64,000 nt of DNA from Candidatus Curtissbacteria bacterium RIFCSPHIGHO2_12_FULL_41_17 (lineage in GTDB: Bacteria; Patescibacteriota; Microgenomatia; Curtissbacterales; GWA2-41-24). Each line of letters starts with the position of its first letter. The first letter of the stretch is position 1. The notes beneath the pieces are model-generated. The model searched no databases and had not been told where the DNA came from. It was given only the letters and a program-made list of their open reading frames with translations. This document shows positions 6,760 through 46,958 of this stretch, one piece after another. Made by a program: the position numbers and the translations under genes. The DNA is taken from assembly GCA_001774945.1 (NCBI GenBank), contig MFBL01000015.1, positions 529-64,528 of the forward strand, read 5' to 3'.

Positions 6760-7023
6760 ATGAGCGATACATCAAAAAAGCAAGTAATAGATAAATTTAA
6801 AACGCACGAGGGCGATACAGGATCTCCGGAAGTCCAGATTGCCTTACTTTCCCAAAGAATCGAGAAGGTTAAGGATCATTTAAAATCACACGGACATGAT
6901 AATCATTCACGAAGGGGTTTGCTTTCTATGATAAATAAACGTAGAAGACTTCTCCACTATTTAACGAGAAAGGCAGAGGATAGATATAAGGATATTATCG
7001 GTAAGCTTGGCTTACCCCAATAA
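6760..7023 (+). CDS. rpsO: 30S ribosomal protein S15
   Basis: GDTGSPEVQIALLSQRIEKVKDHLKSHGHDNHSRRGLLSMINKRRRLLHYL is a typical S15 sequence. Immediately upstream of pnp. Confidence 0.95.
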   Translation: MSDTSKKQVIDKFKTHEGDTGSPEVQIALLSQRIEKVKDHLKSHGHDNHSRRGLLSMINKRRRLLHYLTRKAEDRYKDIIGKLGLPQ

Positions 7024-7245
7024 TATCCTTGCGGTGCTCGCTCAGTAACACTGAGCTGCGCGCCTAAAAGATATTATTGGTAAGTTAGGACTGCCAAAAT
7101 AGAAATAAGCAGCGCTTGCTATTTATCTATTATTGACTTAAAATATAACAGGGAATTGGGTTGTTGGAAGTTGAATAGTTCGAATCAATTTTTTTGATTC
7201 TCACTATCCGATTTCTAACTCCCGTAAATTCTCCAAGAATTTATA

Positions 7246-11513: not shown

Positions 11514-11531
11514 AGTGACCTATTCGGAGGA

Positions 11532-11680
11532 GAGTTTATATTCGCTCGCAGAATACCATCGAGTCAGACTCGACGGATGAATGCGAGAGCGAATACATAC
11601 TTCCGAGGATTGGAAGTATTCTGCTCGCTCATGTAAACTTGAAGAACAATACCGAGGACTCTTAGTCCTCGGAAGTTTAT
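11532..11680 (+). repeat. ~150-nt multi-hairpin intergenic repeat, copy B
   Basis: Same element as 719-865 in inverted orientation. Hairpins lie at 11556-11576, 11598-11618 and 11652-11672, with enclosing stems TATTCGCTCGC/GCGAGAGCGAATA and TAAACTT/AAGTTTA. Confidence 0.85.
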
Positions 11681-11778
11681 AATTTTCTAAAACTCTCCGG
11701 AGAAAGGGTTAGTTAAAACTAACCCTATAGCATTTATAGTCCGCTTGATGTAAAATAAAATTAGCTTCTGGAAAAATT

Positions 11779-26135: not shown

Positions 26136-27239
26136 TTGAATATCCCAGTGAATAAAATACTCCAAATCGGTCCACCCTTTATTATTATCGCCGCACTACT
26201 TTGGAGTCTTGACGGACTTTTAAGAAGAAGCCTTTTTGTGTTACCCCCGGCTCTTATTGTGTTTTGGGAACATGTTTTAGGTGCAGTTATATTAATACCA
26301 TTTGTCCTTTTTTTAGGTCTGAAACTAGGCAAAATGACCAAGAAAGAATGGCTGGCAATTGTTTTTGTAAGCCTTTTCTCTGGAGCCCTCGGAACTATTT
26401 TTTATACGGCGGCTCTTGGTAAAGTTAATTATATCCAGTTTTCGGTTGTAGCTATGCTGCAGCAGCTTCAGCCAATCTGGACCATTACAACCGCAGCTAT
26501 TATCCTAAAAGAAAAATTGACAGGCAATTTTTTAAGGTGGGCAGCATTGGCACTTATTGCTTCTTATTTTGTTACCTTTAGGGATTTAAAAGTTAATCTT
26601 GAAAGCGGCAGCCAAACAATAGTTGCTGCAGGATTTGCTCTTGCGGCTGGGATGATGTGGGGTTCATCAACCGCATTTTCCAAAGTGGTCTTAAAGCAAG
26701 TTTCGTTTATAACGGCCACTTTTTTAAGGTTTATGGCATTGGCACTTATTGCTTCTTATTTTGTTACCTTTAGGGATTTAAAAGTTAATCTTGAAAGCGG
26801 CAGCCAAACAATAGTTGCTGCAGGATTTGCTCTTGCGGCTGGGATGATGTGGGGTTCATCAACCGCATTTTCCAAAGTGGTCTTAAAGCAAGTTTCGTTT
26901 ATAACGGCCACTTTTTTAAGGTTTATGATAGCACCTATATTTGCCCTGCTTTTTTTAGTTGGTTCAAATAAGGGCAGCAGTCTTTTTGCAATCACATTGC
27001 CTCAGGCATTTACACTGCTTGTTATTACTCTCACAACCGGAATGGTTGCTCTTCTTATTTATTATTTTGGCTTAAAAAAAACACCGGCTAGAGTTAGCAC
27101 AATTTTAGAACTTGTCTGGCCTGCTTCGGCAATTTTTATTGACTATGTTTATTTCAAAAAAACTTTATCGACGACTCAGCTGTTGGGGGTTTTTGTATTA
27201 CTTTTTGCAATTTACCAAGTGTCTAAATTCAAAAAGTGA
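26136..27239 (+). CDS. EamA/DMT-family transporter carrying an internal 64-aa tandem duplication
   Basis: Polytopic membrane protein with EamA-like repeats. The segment ALALIASYFVTF...ATFLRFM occurs twice, identically. Confidence 0.8.
   Translation: MNIPVNKILQIGPPFIIIAALLWSLDGLLRRSLFVLPPALIVFWEHVLGAVILIPFVLFLGLKLGKMTKKEWLAIVFVSLFSGALGTIFYTAALGKVNYIQFSVVAMLQQLQPIWTITTAAIILKEKLTGNFLRWAALALIASYFVTFRDLKVNLESGSQTIVAAGFALAAGMMWGSSTAFSKVVLKQVSFITATFLRFMALALIASYFVTFRDLKVNLESGSQTIVAAGFALAAGMMWGSSTAFSKVVLKQVSFITATFLRFMIAPIFALLFLVGSNKGSSLFAITLPQAFTLLVITLTTGMVALLIYYFGLKKTPARVSTILELVWPASAIFIDYVYFKKTLSTTQLLGVFVLLFAIYQVSKFKK
26544..26927 (+). repeat. perfect 2 x 192-bp in-frame tandem duplication inside the DMT gene
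   Basis: 26544-26735 equals 26736-26927 base for base. The junctions share the microhomology TTTTTTAAGGT (26528, 26720, 26912). Confidence 0.9.
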
Positions 27240-35352: not shown

Positions 35353-35405
35353 ACTTATCACTTATCACTCATCACTTATCACTTATCACTGCGACCGAAG
35401 GGAGC
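35353..35405 (+). repeat. heptamer array (ACTTATC x5) plus conserved CGACCGAAGGGAGC box upstream of rpsG
   Basis: Units lie at 35353, 35360, 35367 (ACTCATC), 35374 and 35381. The box at 35392-35405 contains the SD. The same architecture occurs upstream of rpsC. Confidence 0.85.
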
Positions 35406-35408
35406 ATC

Positions 35409-35906
35409 ATGCCCAGAGCAGGAAAGGTAGAAAAAAAACAAATTGCTCCGGATCCCCTTTACCAAAGTTCGCTTGTTGCTAAACTAATCAATAAAGTAAT
35501 GGTCAGCGGCAATAAGTCTCTCGCCCAGAGAGTAGTTTATGATGCGCTCGAAAGTTTAAAATCTGGCGGGCAAGATCCAGTCAAAACCCTAGATAAGGCA
35601 GTTGAGAATATTACGCCAAGAATGGAGGTTAGACCAAGAAGGGTTGGCGGTGCATCTTATATGGTTCCCATGGAAGTCAGGGGATCAAGACGGCTTTCAT
35701 TGGCAATTTCATGGCTGGTTAATGCCGCCAGAAGCAGGAAAGCTTCGGACATTACTCCCAAACCTAAGAATAAGCCCTTAATTATTGCCAAGTTGTCCCA
35801 AGAAATACTGCAAGCATCAGAGAATACCGGCAAGGCAGTCGCCAAAAAAGACGAAATGCACCGCATAGCCGAAGCGAACAAAGCTTTCGCCCATTTCAGA
35901 TGGTAA
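35409..35906 (+). CDS. rpsG: 30S ribosomal protein S7
   Basis: MPRAGKVEKKQIAPDPLYQS.LVAKLINKVM..GNKS and ...ANKAFAHFRW. The ATG at 35409 is preceded by AAGGGAGC. The ORF-track start at 35223 lies inside rpsL. Confidence 0.95.
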   Translation: MPRAGKVEKKQIAPDPLYQSSLVAKLINKVMVSGNKSLAQRVVYDALESLKSGGQDPVKTLDKAVENITPRMEVRPRRVGGASYMVPMEVRGSRRLSLAISWLVNAARSRKASDITPKPKNKPLIIAKLSQEILQASENTGKAVAKKDEMHRIAEANKAFAHFRW

Positions 35907-36117
35907 GCCGGAGTTTACACTGAGCTTGTCGAAGTGCGCATTCCCGCTGGTAATGTGCTCAGCCTTGCGGTCCTCGTCCTTCGTTAAACTCAGGACTGCG
36001 GGCCTAAAAGCTTTCGCCCACTTCCGCTGGTAGCGAAATGTGGTTTGCCGCCTTGCGATAGCTCCGCACTACGCGCGTAGTAGCTATCTAAAGGCGTTTG
36101 CACATTTCCGGTGGTAA
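35907..36117 (+). repeat. array of displaced rpsG 3'-end copies separated by GC-rich palindromic inserts
   Basis: KAFAHFRW-stop is re-encoded at 36007-36033 and 36091-36117 with synonymous differences only. A degenerate copy (AHSRW-stop) lies at 35936-35953. Confidence 0.85.
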
Positions 36118-36122
36118 TTTCC

Positions 36123-37067
36123 CTACAACGAGAATAAATCTAGCACTTGCTTTTTTCCTGTCATGGCTAAATCAAATATCTTTTCCCGATCTTGGGAAAT
36201 TCTTGAGATGGGCATCTCGGAAGGAGCAATAATCCCAATATTTATTGAATCTCCATGCAATCCAATTAGCTCTGCCGCTCGCGAATATTGTTTATGTCTT
36301 GCTAACATAGCAGTTCTAAATTCGGAGGAAAACTTACGCATATATACACTTGTAAGTAAACGTTCTAATAAACTGGCCCCATTTGCTCGCTCGCCTACAG
36401 TATTATTCAAAACCACCAATATATCTGTACACCCTTCCTGTATTGCTAAATCGATTGGAATACCATTCCCTATAGAACCATCACTGTACTTTTTTCCATT
36501 AATACTTATGGTACGGTTATAAACAATAGGAAATGCCGAGGAAGCGATGACTACTTTGACAATATCACACTCCTCTTTCACATCTATAAACTCACTTTTG
36601 CCCGTTTGGGCATCCGTAACGACAATAAAAAAACTCGAACGGGATGACCTAATTGTTTCCTGATCAAGCGGTTTTGTCTTTCGCATTATGTGTTCAGCAT
36701 AATCAAGGTCTAAAACACGCCTTAGACGCCTAACATCGATGAATCTTCTGTCCACTAAATCTTCATGCCAAAGCGAAGCTCCTAACTCTGTCTGTTTAGC
36801 AAGAAAATAAGCAAGGTCAGCAGCCCCAGACGAAACACCGACAACAACATCAAAAGTGTCATGGAAACCCAATTGTTCTAGGCCAACAAGTACTCCGGCA
36901 CCAAATGCTCCACGCACCCCACCGCCACCCATTACTAATGCGGTTTTAATCCTCTCGTGTGTATTGTCACCTTGATCAAGCAGTCTCTTTTTCTCAAGTA
37001 AATTTCTCACGAGCGTTGAATTTCTCGCTGATTCACCTTCTAAAACTTTGGAGCGTAATCTTTCCAT
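36123..37067 (-). CDS. patatin-like phospholipase
   Basis: Oxyanion motif GGGGVRGAFGAGVL, nucleophile elbow GVSSGA (GxSxG), and the catalytic Asp context DGSIGNGIP. Confidence 0.85.
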   Translation of the reverse strand: MERLRSKVLEGESARNSTLVRNLLEKKRLLDQGDNTHERIKTALVMGGGGVRGAFGAGVLVGLEQLGFHDTFDVVVGVSSGAADLAYFLAKQTELGASLWHEDLVDRRFIDVRRLRRVLDLDYAEHIMRKTKPLDQETIRSSRSSFFIVVTDAQTGKSEFIDVKEECDIVKVVIASSAFPIVYNRTISINGKKYSDGSIGNGIPIDLAIQEGCTDILVVLNNTVGERANGASLLERLLTSVYMRKFSSEFRTAMLARHKQYSRAAELIGLHGDSINIGIIAPSEMPISRISQDREKIFDLAMTGKKQVLDLFSL

Positions 37068-37287
37068 GGCTAAAATTGTAGCAAAAATAGTTCTTTAAGA
37101 GAAAAATCTTCTCTCTTGCATACTCATTTAACTTAAGATATAATTCCCGACTAGTTTGTACTTATCTGCCGGTCTTCGACCCTGAGGGCTCAGACCCGAA
37201 TGGGCAGGCAGGCGCCTGTCAAACGCCTAATTTAGCTTCCGCCTGGCTAAATCCAAAGAAGAATTTTTATATTTGGGAAATGATATA

Positions 37288-37316
37288 TTGACTTTTGGCA
37301 GGGTTTTATTGATAAA
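37288..37316 (+). promoter_or_regulatory. candidate promoter TTGACT-17-GATAAA
   Basis: TTGACT at 37288-37293, a 17-nt spacer, and GATAAA at 37311-37316, upstream of the ORF at 37328. Confidence 0.3.
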
Positions 37317-37327
37317 AGAGTAAGATC

Positions 37328-37606
37328 ATGAAAATAATTTCATTATCAAAGGCACAAAAACTGAAAAGCCTTAGAAAAAAACTCACGGAGCTTGAGGAAG
37401 TTAAGCTAAAAGAGGCTTTGGCTAAGTATGGGGAAGCCTACCAGGAGTCAGGAGCGGCCTGGCAGGAAAATGCCGCCTGGGAGCTGGCAGACGAAGAAGT
37501 GTCGGTTATTCGGGCAATGATTTCGGAAATAAAAAGAGAAATCACCGGTTTGGAACATCCTCTTCCTACTACTTCCATCCCGCTCACTATTAAAAAACAA
37601 AAATAA
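37328..37606 (+). CDS. small coiled-coil protein (hypothetical)
   Basis: 92-aa ORF of helical, charged sequence. No family recognised. Confidence 0.45.
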   Translation: MKIISLSKAQKLKSLRKKLTELEEVKLKEALAKYGEAYQESGAAWQENAAWELADEEVSVIRAMISEIKREITGLEHPLPTTSIPLTIKKQK

Positions 37607-37642: not shown

Positions 37643-37791
37643 CAATTTATTTTCGCTTCGCGAAAACCGTGGATTATTAATCCTCGGATGAAGCGAAGGG
37701 AAAACATACTTCCAAGGAAGTTTGGAGCCTAGACCAAAGACGAATGATATGATAGGTGAAAACCGAGGGTTCTTAACTCTCGGAAGTTTAT
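37643..37791 (+). repeat. ~150-nt multi-hairpin intergenic repeat, diverged copy C
   Basis: Collinear with copy B, with the same stem positions but different stem sequences (TTCGCTTC/GAAGCGAA, CCGTGGATT/AATCCTCGG, ACTTCC/GGAAGT, CCGAGGGTT/AACTCTCGG). The terminal CGGAAGTTTAT is identical. Confidence 0.7.
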
Positions 37792-37833: not shown

Positions 37834-39975
37834 ATGGCCGAAAAACAAGCCAGACTTTATTCGCTGGACAGAATAAGAAATATAGGCATCATTGCTCATA
37901 TCGACGCGGGAAAAACGACCACTACCGAGAGAATCCTTTTTTACACAGGTAGGACCTATAAACTCGGAAATATCGATGAAGGCACCACCGTTACCGACTG
38001 GATGGCTCAGGAAAAAGAAAGGGGAATTACGATTGTATCGGCTGCCGTAACAACATTTTGGAAACCCAAAGATGGCCCGTTTGCCAACATTGACACACGT
38101 ATAAACATTATTGACACCCCGGGGCATGTCGATTTTACTGCCGAGGTTGAAAGATCACTGCGTGTTCTAGATGGAGGAGTCACCGTTCTTGATGCAGAAG
38201 AGGGGGTCCAGTCACAATCGGAAACAGTCTGGCGCCAAGCCGACAAATATAAAGTTCCCCGTATTTGTTTCGTTAATAAGATGGATAAAATCGGCGCAGA
38301 TTTTTTCGCAACGCTCTCCTCGATCCGCAAAAAATTACAGGCACCGGCAGTTGCCTACAATTTACCAATCGGCAAGGAAAATGATTTTAAGGGAGTTATC
38401 GATTTACTAACACAAAAGGCCTATATTTGGGAAGAAGAGGCTGTCAAAAAAGGAGGAATGGATTTTGTCAAGGTACCCATCCCAAGTGAATTGCTTGCTG
38501 AAACCGAAAAACATAGAGCCCACTTAATTGAAAAAATTGCAGAATGTGACGATAGTCTTGTGGAAAAATACCTTAAGGGTGAAGAATTGGGAATAGACGA
38601 ACTTAAATCAGCACTTCGACGTGCAGTCATCGAATATAAAATAGTTCCCGTGCTTGCAGGTTCCAGTCTACGCAATAAAGGTGTTCAAATGCTTCTTGAC
38701 GCAACTGTAGAATACTTACCTTCTCCTTTAGATATAGAAACGGTAGAGGGTATTAATCCTAAAACAGGTGAGAAGGAGATCCGCAAACAAGTAGTCGAAG
38801 CTCCATTTTGTGCCTTGGCATTTAAAGTCCAGATCGATCCGCATGTCGGTAAATTAAATTTCATCAGAATTTATTCGGGAACACTAAAATCCGGTACTTC
38901 TGTTTTGAATACGACAAAAAGGGAACATGAAAGAGTCGGCAGAATTTTACTAATGCATGCCAATACCAGAGAAGAGATTGCCGAAGCATACGCAGGAGAA
39001 ATTGTGGCAGTTGTCGGACTTAAATCAACCACCACAGGAGACACGCTCTGCGCTGAAAATTCTCCGATTATTTTAGAATCGATTTCGTTTCCGGACCCGG
39101 TCATTTCACTGGCAATTGAGCCAAGTACAAAGGCTGATCAGGAGAAACTTGGTTACGCTTTGGGCCGGCTTTCCGAGGAAGATCCGACGTTTAAGATTAA
39201 AGGTGATCCGGAAACCGGGCAAACAATTATTTCCGGAATGGGAGAACTGCATCTGGAAATCCTGGTTGACAGAATGAAGAGAGAGTTTGCAGTCGCTGCC
39301 AAAGTCGGCAGTCCGCAAGTTGCTTACAAGGAAACCATTAGAGAAACAGGCAGAGGTGAAGGTAAATATATTCGGCAGTCCGGTGGCAGAGGCCAATACG
39401 GGCACTGTTTTTTGAGGGTTGAGCCTAATCCTCGCGGTGAGGGTTATCAATTCGTTTCCGAGATTAGAGGTGGCGCTATTCCGCAAGAGTTTATTTCCTC
39501 AGTAGAAAAAGGAGTTCGCGAAAAAATGGAAACCGGGGTTTTAGCTGGATATCCGATGGTCGATATAAAGGTAGCAGTTTATGATGGTACTTATCATGAC
39601 GTTGACTCTTCCGATATTGCTTTTAAAATCGCCGGCTCTCTTGCTTTGGAAGAAGCCGTCAAAAATGCCAGTCTTGCGCTTTTGGAACCGATCATGAAAG
39701 TGGAAGTGACCATTCCCGAAGAATTCATGGGTGATGTAATTGGGGATTTATCTGCCAAGCGTGCTCAAATACTTTCAAGCGAACATCGGGCAAACAGCGT
39801 GATTATTACAGCCCTTGTGCCGCTTGCAGAGATGTCCGGCTATGTTACAACTCTTAGGTCTATGACTCAAGGGAGAGGATCAGCATATATGGAACCGTCA
39901 CATTACGAAGAAGTTCCCCAGAGTATAGCAGACAAAATCGTAGCAAGGGCCAAAGGTGAGGTAAAAGAAAGTTAG
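37834..39975 (+). CDS. fusA: elongation factor G
   Basis: [40 protein letters not shown]. The ATG at 37834 is preceded by GGAGG. The ORF-track TTG at 37819 would include the SD. Confidence 0.95.
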
Positions 39976-40024
39976 TAAAGAGTTTACCATGAACGAAGTC
40001 GCGTCAGACGCGACGAAGTGAAGG

Positions 40025-40072
40025 GCCGATAAAATAGTCGCAAAGGTTAAGGGTGAAACTAACCAAAGCTGA
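40025..40072 (+). repeat. displaced second copy of the fusA 3' end
   Basis: Encodes ADKIVAKVKGETNQS-stop, compared with the genuine end [15 protein letters not shown]-stop at 39928-39975. Confidence 0.8.
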
Positions 40073-40089
40073 CAATGTGATTTAGTCAA

Positions 40090-40150
40090 TGCAAGAAGTA
40101 TTAGAAGCTTTTGGTACCTGTGGTACTTTTAAATCTTCCTCTTGCATTTT
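40090..40150 (+). terminator. candidate intrinsic terminator after fusA
   Basis: A long imperfect hairpin TGCAAGA...(GTACC-TGT-GGTAC)...TCTTGCA, followed by TTTT. Confidence 0.35.
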
Positions 40151-40231
40151 GTTGTCAGAATAATATAAACTATTCCAACTAATATCAGCCTGTCAGGTTT
40201 TAACTTGGCAAAAAGCCTGATATTATTTTTA

Positions 40232-40320
40232 CCCAAATTTCAAAGAAATTTGGAGAGGAAAAATTTGAGTGCGTTTAATGTTCTCAATAGAACATGAATA
40301 GCACGAGCAATTTTGACGAC
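40232..40320 (+). repeat. conserved structured 5' leader element, copy 2 (tuf)
   Basis: See 14566-14657. An SD-like GGAGAGG is followed by a short uORF whose TGA overlaps an in-frame ATG at 40294. Confidence 0.8.
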
Positions 40321-41505
40321 ATGGCAGCAGAAAAATTTGAACGAACAAAACCACACGTAAATATTGGCACGATTGGCCATGTTGATCATGGTAAAACTAC
40401 GCTGACCAGTGCTATTACTCAGGTCCTATCCAAAAAAGGTCTGGCTCAGGCGAAATCCTTTGATCAGATAGATAATGCCCCGGAAGAGAAACAAAGAGGA
40501 ATTACTATTAATATTACTCATGTGGAGTACGAAACGGAAAAGCGTCACTATGCCCACATTGATGCCCCCGGCCATGCCGACTACATCAAAAACATGATTA
40601 CAGGTGCCGCCCAAATGGACGGTGCAATTCTGGTTGTAAGCGCTCCGGACGGGCCGATGCCGCAGACGAGAGAGCATGTTCTTTTGGCCAGACAGGTAAA
40701 CGTTCCGGCAATCGTAGTTTTTCTAAACAAAACGGATATGGTTCAGGATGCAGAACTTTTGGATCTTGTGGAACTTGAGGTGCGCGAACTTCTGGATAAA
40801 TATCAGTTTGATGGAAAAAATGCGACAATCATTCGCGGTTCGGCACTTAAAGCGATTGAAGGAGATGCACAAGCCGTTAAAGCGATTGAAGACTTAATGG
40901 CCGCAGTTGATGAAAAAATCCCCACTCCCGCAAGGGATTTAGACAAACCTTTCCTGATGCCGGTTGAAGATGTCTTTTCCATAAAAGGCCGAGGGACTGT
41001 TGTTACAGGCAGAGTTGAACGGGGCGTTATAAAAGTCAATGAGGAGATCGAAATTGTCGGAATTAGACCTACAAAAAAAACTATTGTAACAGGAGTAGAA
41101 ATGTTTAGAAAAGAGCTAGACCAGGGACAAGCCGGTGACAATATCGGCGTACTACTTCGAGGGATTGAAAAAGATGACGTTGAAAGAGGGCAGGTTTTGG
41201 CAAAGCCCGGCTCGACAACACCGCATACCGAATTCGAGGCAGAGGTGTATATCCTAACTAAAGAAGAAGGCGGACGACACACCCCCTTCTTTACCGGTTA
41301 TAGACCCCAGTTTTATATAAGAACGACCGATGTTACCGGAGAAGCAACTCTTCCCGAAGGAACAGAAATGGTTATGCCGGGAGACAATATTAAAATGAAA
41401 GTTAAACTTATCGAGCCGGTTGCTATGGAAGAAGGACTTAGATTTGCCATCCGCGAGGGTGGCCACACAGTAGGCGCCGGCGTAGTCAGCAAGATAATTG
41501 CGTAA
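40321..41505 (+). CDS. tuf: elongation factor Tu
   Basis: [41 protein letters not shown]. The start is placed at the canonical EF-Tu N-terminus. The alternative ATG at 40294 would add MNSTSNFDD. Confidence 0.95.
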
Positions 41506-41545
41506 GAGATTTGGGTCTCCTCAGAGCTTGCCAGAAGGCCGTAGG

Positions 41546-41576
41546 CCCTGAGCTTGCGAAGGGGGGATTTTTTTTG
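41546..41576 (+). terminator. candidate intrinsic terminator after tuf, built from a CCTGAGC..CGAAGGGG repeat
   Basis: CCCT..AGGGG stem followed by a T8 run (GGGGGGATTTTTTTT). Confidence 0.35.
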
Positions 41577-42289: not shown

Positions 42290-42497
42290 TTAAAATTAGG
42301 AAATTGGGATTTGTTTAGAAATTATAAATTGTCAAAATGGAGGTATTAAAAACTAACAACTAAATATACAATTTAACGATTAACCACAAGCGATTTGCGT
42401 TAATCGGTGGGACACCTGAAAATCCTGAGCTCGTCGAAGGAATAATTTTAAGGTATCCTACTTTTTTAGTATTTATTTGGTGAATGAAGGAGTAAAG

Positions 42498-46790: not shown

Positions 46791-46958
46791 TTTCGTCCTT
46801 GCGAGAATTTCGCTTCTATTGAAATAGCTTTTTCAATAGAGCTCCATTCTTTAAAAAGCAACTATTATGAGAAGTAATAATTGGAAATTGGAAATTACTC
46901 GCCGCAAGCGAGTTTCGAGTCGAAATGGAAATTGGAAATTCCTCCGAAGGAGGGTTAT

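Follow-up and report, generated by a model that had tools for sequence, protein, structure and literature searches.

In a 64,000-nt stretch of contig MFBL01000015.1 from Candidatus Curtissbacteria bacterium RIFCSPHIGHO2_12_FULL_41_17 (hereafter the window), fusA, the gene of elongation factor G (EF-G), is followed by a second, diverged version of its own 3' end. The gene itself (37834-39975, + strand) is complete and encodes a protein of 713 amino acids that starts MAEKQARLY and contains all EF-G Pfam domains. Its translated tail, comprising 15 codons and the stop codon TAG (GCAGAC...AGTTAG; 39928-39975, +), is referred to here as copy 1. An insert of 49 nt (39976-40024, +) separates it from copy 2 (40025-40072, +), an untranslated pseudo-tail that would read ADKIVAKVKGETNQS followed by the stop codon TGA. 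The next gene is tuf (EF-Tu; 40294-41505, +). Upstream of tuf, a by-eye alignment of the downstream regions points to a conserved promoter-like motif (TTGCAT, 16 nt, TATAAA; 40142-40169, +), which a strict consensus promoter scan did not call. In relatives without the duplication, this motif lies ~10-50 nt 3' of the fusA stop codon.

Copies 1 and 2 are identical at 31 of 48 nucleotides, with the 17 differences distributed 2/4/11 over the first, second and third codon positions. At the protein level, 10 of 15 residues are identical and seven codons show a synonymous difference only. These protein-level counts confirm a preliminary description of the locus, which had also given the coordinates and sequences of the duplicated end exactly. 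When the downstream 318 nt were shuffled 5000 times, no ungapped match to copy 1 reached 31 (maximum 28, mean 21.9, s.d. 1.3), and copy 2 is the sole other match of at least 28/48 to copy 1 on either strand of the whole window. It lies in the +1 frame relative to fusA, after two in-frame stops (TAG TAA), and is no extension of the EF-G protein. Positions 39928-40072 are without any difference in 10 other, independent assemblies of the same Candidatus Curtissbacteria species, which is known from Rifle aquifer samples; the duplicated-tail structure is therefore real rather than an assembly artefact, and fixed in the species. An identical called EF-G protein is present on 20 public contigs.

Copy 1, ending ...KGEVKES, matches other Curtissbacteria tails at 13 of 15 residues, while the N-Q-S end of copy 2 deviates from the conserved K-E-S of EF-G tails. 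The preliminary description had proposed a search for EF-G sequences ending in ..KGETNQS as a way to a possible donor lineage. Such an ending was not found among the 120 best public C-terminal fragments and the fetched loci with a fusA 3' end, and a chimeric C-terminal query against 5.8 billion proteins recovered tails matching copy 2 at no more than 12 of 15 residues, the exact tail being absent. The conserved K-E-S end suggests that N-Q-S reflects decay rather than a donor signature, and this decay may be at an early stage.

The insert begins with the second in-frame stop TAA (39976-39978), followed by a linker and the octamer GAGTTTAC (39980-39987), and its terminator-type hairpin module ends ...GAAGG, abutting the start of copy 2 exactly. 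It had been described as a 49-nt palindrome; the length stands, but the insert is only partly palindromic, with a 7-bp stem GTCGCGT/ACGCGAC (39998-40004/40008-40014) around a CAG loop, and the flanking ACGAAGT sequences (39993-39999 and 40013-40019) are direct repeats and not complementary arms. Between these 7-nt repeats sits the 13-nt palindrome CGCGTCAGACGCG (40000-40012); it is part of a nested 20-nt addition (39993-40019, +) that is missing from the corresponding insert of one relative (L004). The predicted RNA fold of the window insert has -16.5 kcal/mol (z = -1.9).

In L004, the fusA insert GAGTTTACCCTGAACGTAGTGAAGG occupies the same junction, down to the same right-junction nucleotide, and is identical to the window insert at 23 of 25 positions. 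A related hairpin (TCCTGAGCG...GTCGAAGGA) stands at the same codon of fusA in a second relative (L084). The form common to them is GTTTAC + stem-GAGCTTG(T)CGA-stem, and a module of GTTTAC + stem-GAGCTTGTCGA-stem is recurrent. The inserts of L004 and L084 fold no better than shuffles (z about -0.5). The same hairpin type, stem-GAGCTTGCGA-stem with a T-run, forms the tuf terminator in both the window (CCCTGAGCTTGCGAAGGGG and then the T-run, 41545-41575, +) and L004. We did not find the insert to be called as an intrinsic terminator (none in 39800-40400), copy 2 standing in place of the T-run. The preliminary description had assigned the insert, together with the first rpsG insert, to a second class of element. 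Such a class is real, given L004 and the recurrent module, but the fusA insert fits the description of the clade's ordinary terminator-type hairpin better than that of a dedicated mobile element. The octamer that had been taken to link the two inserts is not significant alone (3 hits, 1.74 expected).

A solo case in another genome (L175) has the order tail, stop, linker (..ATAAAGGC), GTTTAC and CCCTGAGCTTGTCGAAGGG, then unrelated DNA, with no second copy behind and a linker similar to the TAAAGA-GTTTAC of the window. This fusA tail-stop-linker-hairpin without a second copy is our main reason for thinking that copy 1 and the insert arrived together.

The 49-nt insert holds no open reading frame (ORF), and Pfam scans of 38 window ORFs recovered RecA, RecX and RuvX, and nothing recognisable as an integrase, transposase, homing endonuclease or reverse transcriptase. 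A gathering-threshold Rfam scan of the whole window returned one tRNA only, and E-value scans around fusA and rpsG gave chance-level hits only (E > 1). Elsewhere in the window, a structured repeat of ~150 nt occurs twice in opposite orientation (715-865, -, and 11530-11690, +) and has GAGTTTA and the palindrome CGAGTCAGACTCG in common with the fusA insert. It looks like an element of the miniature inverted-repeat transposable element (MITE) kind or a small RNA gene, and the gathering-threshold scan returned nothing for it.

Duplicated tails at other genes and in relatives

Two further genes in the window carry duplicated tails. The rpsG tail KAFAHFRW* is present four times on the + strand, at 35880-35906 (functional), 35936-35953 (truncated), 36007-36033 and 36091-36117, with three different hairpin inserts between the tails (35907-35935, 35954-36006 and 36034-36090). 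The truncated copy is mutated to AHSRW, and the full copies differ synonymously only. The rpsO tail occurs in two copies (6988-7023 and 7067-7102, +) that flank a 43-nt hairpin insert (7024-7066) and show 10 differences, of which 9 are synonymous. The duplicated rpsO region is predicted to fold into one long stem (-34.3 kcal/mol, z = -7.75), for which the coding end, itself palindromic (GGTAAGC TTG GCTTACC), partly accounts. An inverted copy of the tail start in the 5' part of inserts was considered as evidence of foldback synthesis and dropped, the rpsO complementarity coming largely from this coding-end palindrome.

EF-G served to fetch relatives, 80 species-representative genomes together with 80 metagenome contigs, in which the end of each ORF was checked for a copy further downstream. 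As the preliminary description had guessed from rpsO and rpsG, tail duplications proved recurrent; they were found at fusA (L004, L084, L098, L108, L175), rpsG (L003 with three copies, L082, L085/L086, L092), rpsJ (L005, L043, L094, L096) and rpoC (L081 with three copies, L083), and at one non-translation gene (L014). Among 14 close relatives (EF-G identity of 78% or more), about 9-10 had at least one case (about two thirds), compared with about 6 of roughly 145 more distant ones (about 4%). Duplicated lengths range from 6 to about 88 codons and insert lengths from 0 nt to 2.8 kb. The lower limit is set by L081 and L175, where two tail copies abut without an insert; the abutting fusA tails of L175 overlap by 8 nt, AAAGTTGA.

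A second class of insert recurs at the tails of rpsG, rpsO and rpsJ in several genomes and has the form CCTTGCG, 6-7-bp stem, inner hairpin, stem and CTAAAA. The stem takes at least five different sequences and is paired in every one. These inserts end ...CTAAA[AG] and always meet the downstream tail at a Lys codon (AAA/AAG) in rpsG, rpsO and rpsJ. A scan for the pattern plus pairing over 1.17 Mb returned known instances only, and a covariance model of the class was abandoned, its subfamilies not being consistently alignable by MAFFT. One further hairpin of this CCTTGCG...CTAAAA class stands directly 3' of the rpsC stop codon in the window (46791-46850, +; fold z = -2.8). No recognisable tail copy lies behind it, with further small hairpins following before rplP, and it is a possible 'donor-type' state.

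The larger inserts carry genes. The cargo of L175 (2.8 kb) contains PIN and YafQ toxin modules, these being the only precomputed Pfam tags in the cargo of L175/L176, where several ORFs are without a Pfam hit. The cargo of L108 (2 kb) has ORFs resembling a GTP-cyclohydrolase-II gene and an HD-domain gene (judged by eye), and those of L096 and L098 measure 1 kb and 0.5 kb. In none of these four large inserts was a recognisable endonuclease ORF found (by ORF reading, with Pfam tags for L175). Altogether, 5.4 kb of inserted DNA lies between the complete fusA and tuf of L175 (2367-7807; GCA_000404925.1, ASNZ01000015.1), in the order PIN/YafQ toxin-antitoxin modules, a short decayed fusA tail, the abutting fusA tail of ~88 codons, a terminator-type hairpin and more ORFs. 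Viral contigs were searched for a phage-borne fusA tail, and the sole hit was a full-length EF-G beside a 405-aa ORF of tuf-like length, which is apparently host DNA.

Between assemblies of the same species, only tiny hairpin modules vary. A 27-nt segment in the loop region of the tuf terminator (AGAAGGCCGTAGGCCCTGAGCTTGCGA; 41533-41559) is present in the window and absent from 9 of 9 other covering assemblies, converting one hairpin into two. A 47-nt insertion lies inside the hairpin CCTGAGCTC^GTCGAAGG at window position 42432, upstream of rplC, in L161, and a 30-nt insertion (TTATTTCGAGCTTGCGAGAAACAAGCTCTC) at window position 37673, upstream of fusA, in L169/L170. These strain-specific micro-insertions are tiny hairpins nested within one another. 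One contig with an identical EF-G protein (L168) shows no difference from the window over 39700-40194 and diverges sharply from 40195; in the interval from the tuf promoter region to the start of tuf, it has numerous substitutions and an indel of 14 nt. This pattern marks a within-species recombination breakpoint between fusA and tuf, so that exchange between lineages can be seen in the very spacer that holds the duplication.

Divergence and origin of the paired tails

We simulated random substitution for 17 copy pairs (from rpoC, rpsG, fusA, rpsJ and rpsO) under a model in which all changes are neutral and a conservative one in which half are. The majority of the pairs reject in-situ duplication followed by drift. 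Under the half-neutral model, the rpoC pair of L083 (11 differences, 0 amino-acid changes) gives P = 5e-5, the rpsJ pair of L005 (18 differences, 2 amino-acid changes) P = 8e-4, the fusA pair of L004 (12 differences, 1 amino-acid change) P = 2e-3, and the rpsG pairs of the window and L003 (4-8 differences, 0 amino-acid changes) P from 4e-4 to 3e-2. The fusA pair of the window, with 11 of its 17 differences at third positions, gives P = 1e-4 if all changes are neutral and is not significant alone under the half-neutral model (P = 0.25); the inference draws on the family of cases. The view that the divergence is ortholog-like and no fresh duplication, already put forward in the preliminary description, is thus upheld by the family, but not, in the conservative test, by the window pair on its own.

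In L175, the complete fusA and the 2.8 kb cargo precede a displaced fusA tail of ~88 codons, which differs from the functional tail at 41 of 249 nucleotides, 33 of them at third positions, with 2 amino-acid changes. We read these functional and displaced tails as two alleles. In the window, copy 1 and copy 2 are each identical to other Curtissbacteria tails at 33-36 of 48 positions, a distance similar to that between the two copies. The copy 2 sequences of the window and L004 are identical over the first 11 nt beside the insert and then differ at 13 of 37 positions; as 10 of these 13 are third positions, the two diverged while coding. Coding-type divergence, together with a mutual distance similar to that of relatives, implies that at least one tail came from another lineage. 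Judged by these sequence patterns, the two tails derive from two different functional alleles, and the structure is neither a fresh nor a target-site duplication. Sliding-window similarity of fusA to 11 relatives singled out neither a recombination tract nor a native tail, all of these relatives being 65-80% identical and saturated.

We therefore weigh four ways in which such a pair could have come about. Probable in our judgement, if by no means secure, is that the fusA tail duplication is a recombination scar with the DNA of a diverged relative, anchored by homology in fusA and joined illegitimately at the foot of the hairpin; the locus is then a scar and no working device. The incoming DNA, from a diverged member of Curtissbacteria, would have comprised a fusA end, its stop codon and the trailing terminator-type hairpin. 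One crossover would have been homologous, within the conserved fusA coding sequence. The second joint would have linked the 3' foot of the donor hairpin to a point 48 nt upstream of the resident stop codon, and it would be illegitimate because the sequence downstream of fusA is not conserved between lineages. The product would then read, in order, fusA body, imported tail (copy 1, translated, TAG TAA), imported linker and hairpin, resident tail (copy 2) and resident tuf promoter. Any joint lying further 3' would remove this promoter, and the joints that survive would therefore tend to lie at or upstream of the stop codon, which would leave duplications. Within this scheme, we infer which part was imported (copy 1 with the insert) and which was resident (copy 2), as well as how the DNA was taken up and what kind of illegitimate joint was formed.

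Once formed, a hairpin between two partial conserved tails could pass among lineages by homologous recombination, which would account for L004 sharing the insert and its junction while its tails differ further away. The mosaic of the window and L004 suggests that homologous recombination with short conversion tracts later carried the cassette from one lineage to another, and the 20-nt micro-palindrome would have been added inside the insert at a later stage.

The arrangement by which we recognise illegitimate recombination is present, with coding-diverged tails on either side and the conserved gene body at left as an anchor. Patescibacteria can be naturally competent (PMC10633639), and competent bacteria are documented to integrate DNA through homology at one end and an illegitimate joint at the other (PMC3240628). 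Microhomology at the junction amounts to 8 nt in L175, to 4-6 nt (AAAG) in cases of the CCTTGCG class and to at most 2 nt at the window fusA joint.

Several observations weigh against a scar. The window junction (GAAGG, then GCCGAT) has microhomology of at most 1-2 nt with a donor-type flank, so the microhomology signature comes from the sister cases only. Three fusA cases (window, L004, L084) have the junction at one and the same codon, and six or more rpsG cases have it at a single Lys codon, which looks more site-specific than random joining, unless homologous recombination has spread the products of single events. Nor does the scheme predict the complementarity, seen in several cases, between the 5' part of the insert and the 5-12 nt with which the downstream copy begins (L083, CAATTATATCAG/CTGATATAATTG; L005; rpsG GCCTT/AAGGC compared with GCTTT/AAAGC in L092). 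All relatives are too diverged (65-80% nucleotide identity) to identify the native tail, so the direction is not proven. The Arg codon of rpsG is AGR in most first copies, as in most unduplicated relatives, and CGN in 8 of 8 downstream copies, which fits foreign downstream copies at least as well. Neither a donor genome nor an empty-site allele of the source species was found.

Low microhomology, recurrent junction codons, pairing between insert and tail, and the rpsG Arg codons keep alive an alternative that we regard as unlikely and yet take seriously, namely that the duplications are left by a miniature integrative or homing cassette. Such a non-autonomous unit of replacement tail, stop and hairpin would insert site-specifically at the 3' ends of conserved genes by means of a recombinase or structure-specific nuclease encoded elsewhere, and the gene thus interrupted would be rescued by the tail of the unit. 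Parallels exist in integron attC cassettes, cis-mobilisable remnants of integrative elements and degenerate homing-endonuclease insertions. Besides the recurrent junction codons, this reading accommodates the flanks of the CCTTGCG class, invariant (CCTTGC ... TAAAA) around a variable but paired 6-7-bp stem and thus recognition-site-like, as well as the tandem rpsG arrays of 3-4 units, the near-identity of the window and L004 inserts compared with 35/48 for the flanking tails, and the gain and loss of tiny hairpin modules between strains of the source species. However, neither the insert nor the 38 window ORFs nor the cargo of L175 (by Pfam tags) and of L096 and L108 (by ORF reading) revealed an integrase, transposase, HUH nuclease or homing endonuclease, and the two joints are without a common exact core. 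The variable length of the duplications, the copies that abut without any hairpin (L081, L175), the poor folds of the L004 and L084 inserts and the sharing of the fusA hairpin type with ordinary tuf terminators all speak against it as well.

A more radical version, which we consider quite unlikely, has the hairpin between two partial gene tails as a minimal, protein-free homing cassette that invades the same essential gene, whatever the lineage, by recombination alone and forms arrays. The upstream tail would serve as left homology arm and rescue copy, and the start of the downstream tail as the right arm, which pairs with the 5' arm of the cassette.

In-situ duplication, in which slippage or template switching at a hairpin is followed by synonymous changes in copy 1 and drift in copy 2, is improbable and already disfavoured. 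The half-neutral result for the window pair leaves room for it, as do two odd replacements in the conserved KES end of copy 2 and the small hairpin-associated duplications that arise between strains (e.g., the 27-nt addition to the tuf terminator loop). The sister cases nevertheless reject it strongly; 35% of the positions differ, yet the frame of copy 2 ends in a stop codon at the aligned position of copy 1, the copy 2 sequences of the window and L004 differ mostly at third positions, and these two genomes, with 27% divergence in their tails, have inserts that are 92% identical. Finally, it is extremely improbable that copy 2 is a functional alternative C-terminus, translated via bypassing, frameshifting or RNA processing with both tails under selection: although it has a tail-like reading frame with a stop codon, and its divergence between genomes is of the coding type, it lies in the +1 frame and 49 nt beyond the tandem stops, inspection by eye revealed no matching codons for take-off and landing (no systematic search was made) and no known recoding RNA was found, it would repeat EF-G rather than extend it, truncated or mutated copies are known (AHSRW, AHLRW, AYFRW), and most relatives are without the duplicated structure.

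Known systems and surrounding genes

The literature yielded no description of hairpin-only serial tail duplications in Patescibacteria, only analogues. Two known systems match in layout. One is the prophage e14 in icd of Escherichia coli, where, according to the account in PMC13626634 (citing Hill et al. 1989), the tail borne by the element is functional, the original tail lies downstream as the icdC pseudogene with mainly synonymous differences, and deletion between the tails yields a chimeric, functional gene. At fusA we likewise see a 3'-end insertion with a substitute tail and a displaced pseudo-tail. Unlike e14, which has 15 kb, its own integrase and a defined att core, the fusA insert has 49 nt, with no recombinase found and no common core visible: copies 1 and 2 have no exact block above 6 nt in common that could serve as an attL/attR-type core (GGTGA[GA], AAAAT), and the sequences to the left of the copies are unrelated. 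In the fungal mitochondrial genes atp6 and cob, the gene is followed by mobile DNA and then a duplicated C-terminal segment, beside free-standing homing-endonuclease genes (PMC6279837). The order of conserved gene, insert and C-terminal duplicate is the same here, whereas the fungal inserts hold GIY-YIG or LAGLIDADG ORFs (intact or degenerate) and ours a hairpin only, or toxin-antitoxin or metabolic genes in the larger versions. In Allomyces atp6, reportedly (Paquin, Laforest and Lang, 1994), the functional tail is foreign and the native one displaced. Because the genes that define them are absent, the fusA locus is no member of the e14 or homing-endonuclease families.

Natural transformation can generate partial duplications and merodiploids (PMC3784515). 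The fusA locus resembles homology-facilitated illegitimate recombination in that foreign DNA would have one homologous and one illegitimate end. That process, however, has been seen in laboratory crosses; it has not been described as a source of serial scars that recur and are fixed where essential genes end, nor is a joint at a hairpin foot among its described features.

Repetitive extragenic palindromic (REP) elements, cyanobacterial small dispersed repeats and MITEs are very small dispersed hairpin repeats, and their target duplications, if any, are short and identical. The fusA and sister inserts share with them short palindromic modules that are nested and vary in presence between strains, and differ in that long, synonymously diverged copies of the neighbouring gene tail accompany the hairpin. 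A transposon or MITE with target-site duplication does not describe the locus, whose repeats span 48 nt and differ at 35% of positions in a coding pattern; a 7-nt repeat resembling a target-site duplication is confined to the nested 20-nt addition. We rejected a diversity-generating retroelement for want of adenine specificity, an A in either copy being involved in just 5 or 6 of the 17 mismatches; the scanned ORFs contain no reverse transcriptase domain. Nor does the insert match an integron attC cassette: inspection of it revealed no RYYYAAC/GTTRRRY core sites, and no integrase was found in the window.

The usual str operon is interrupted between rpsG and fusA (36123-37606) by an opposite-strand gene for a patatin-like phospholipase and a 92-aa ORF without a Pfam match. 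The former, an ORF of 314 aa, had been considered as an integrase, which its Pfam assignment rejects. A homologue of the 92-aa ORF (84 aa) lies upstream of fusA in L120, where the same gap is filled by other cargo, namely two ORFs resembling a DUF433/PIN-type toxin-antitoxin pair (by eye only) and a 195-aa ORF with no Pfam hit. On the metagenome contig L173, an in-frame TGA inside fusA (1446-1448) splits the called gene into two pieces, and the fusA 3' end and downstream region match L003; the TGA could be a sequencing error, a pseudogene or recoding. The rpsL-rpsG spacer of the window has the short repeat ACTTATCACTTATCACT twice, 21 nt apart (35353-35390). Further off, a perfect-register 192-nt tandem repeat (26520-26903; two copies 96% identical and the start of a third) lies inside an ORF with EamA transporter domains (26136-27239).

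Significance for the clade

Patescibacteria have tiny genomes and depend on material taken up from other cells. The scars constitute sequence-level evidence that DNA of distant relatives (65-80% nucleotide identity) has repeatedly recombined into genes that rank as the cell's most conserved, namely rpoC, rpsG, fusA, rpsJ and rpsO. New DNA enters at the tail junctions, from a bare hairpin up to 2.8 kb of toxin-antitoxin or metabolic genes, and the presence of scars in about two thirds of close and about 4% of distant relatives makes the 3' ends of universal genes appear to be entry ports for foreign DNA in this clade.

For phylogenetics, the ends of ribosomal-protein and EF-G markers may be chimeric, and pseudo-tails can mislead gene callers. 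The arrays, for their part, record successive recombination events and are potentially datable. If the cassettes do propagate themselves, they would amount to a new kind of mobile DNA, and a minimal one; a protein-free homing cassette, if real, would represent a class of selfish DNA that is new and specific to ultra-small bacteria with natural competence.

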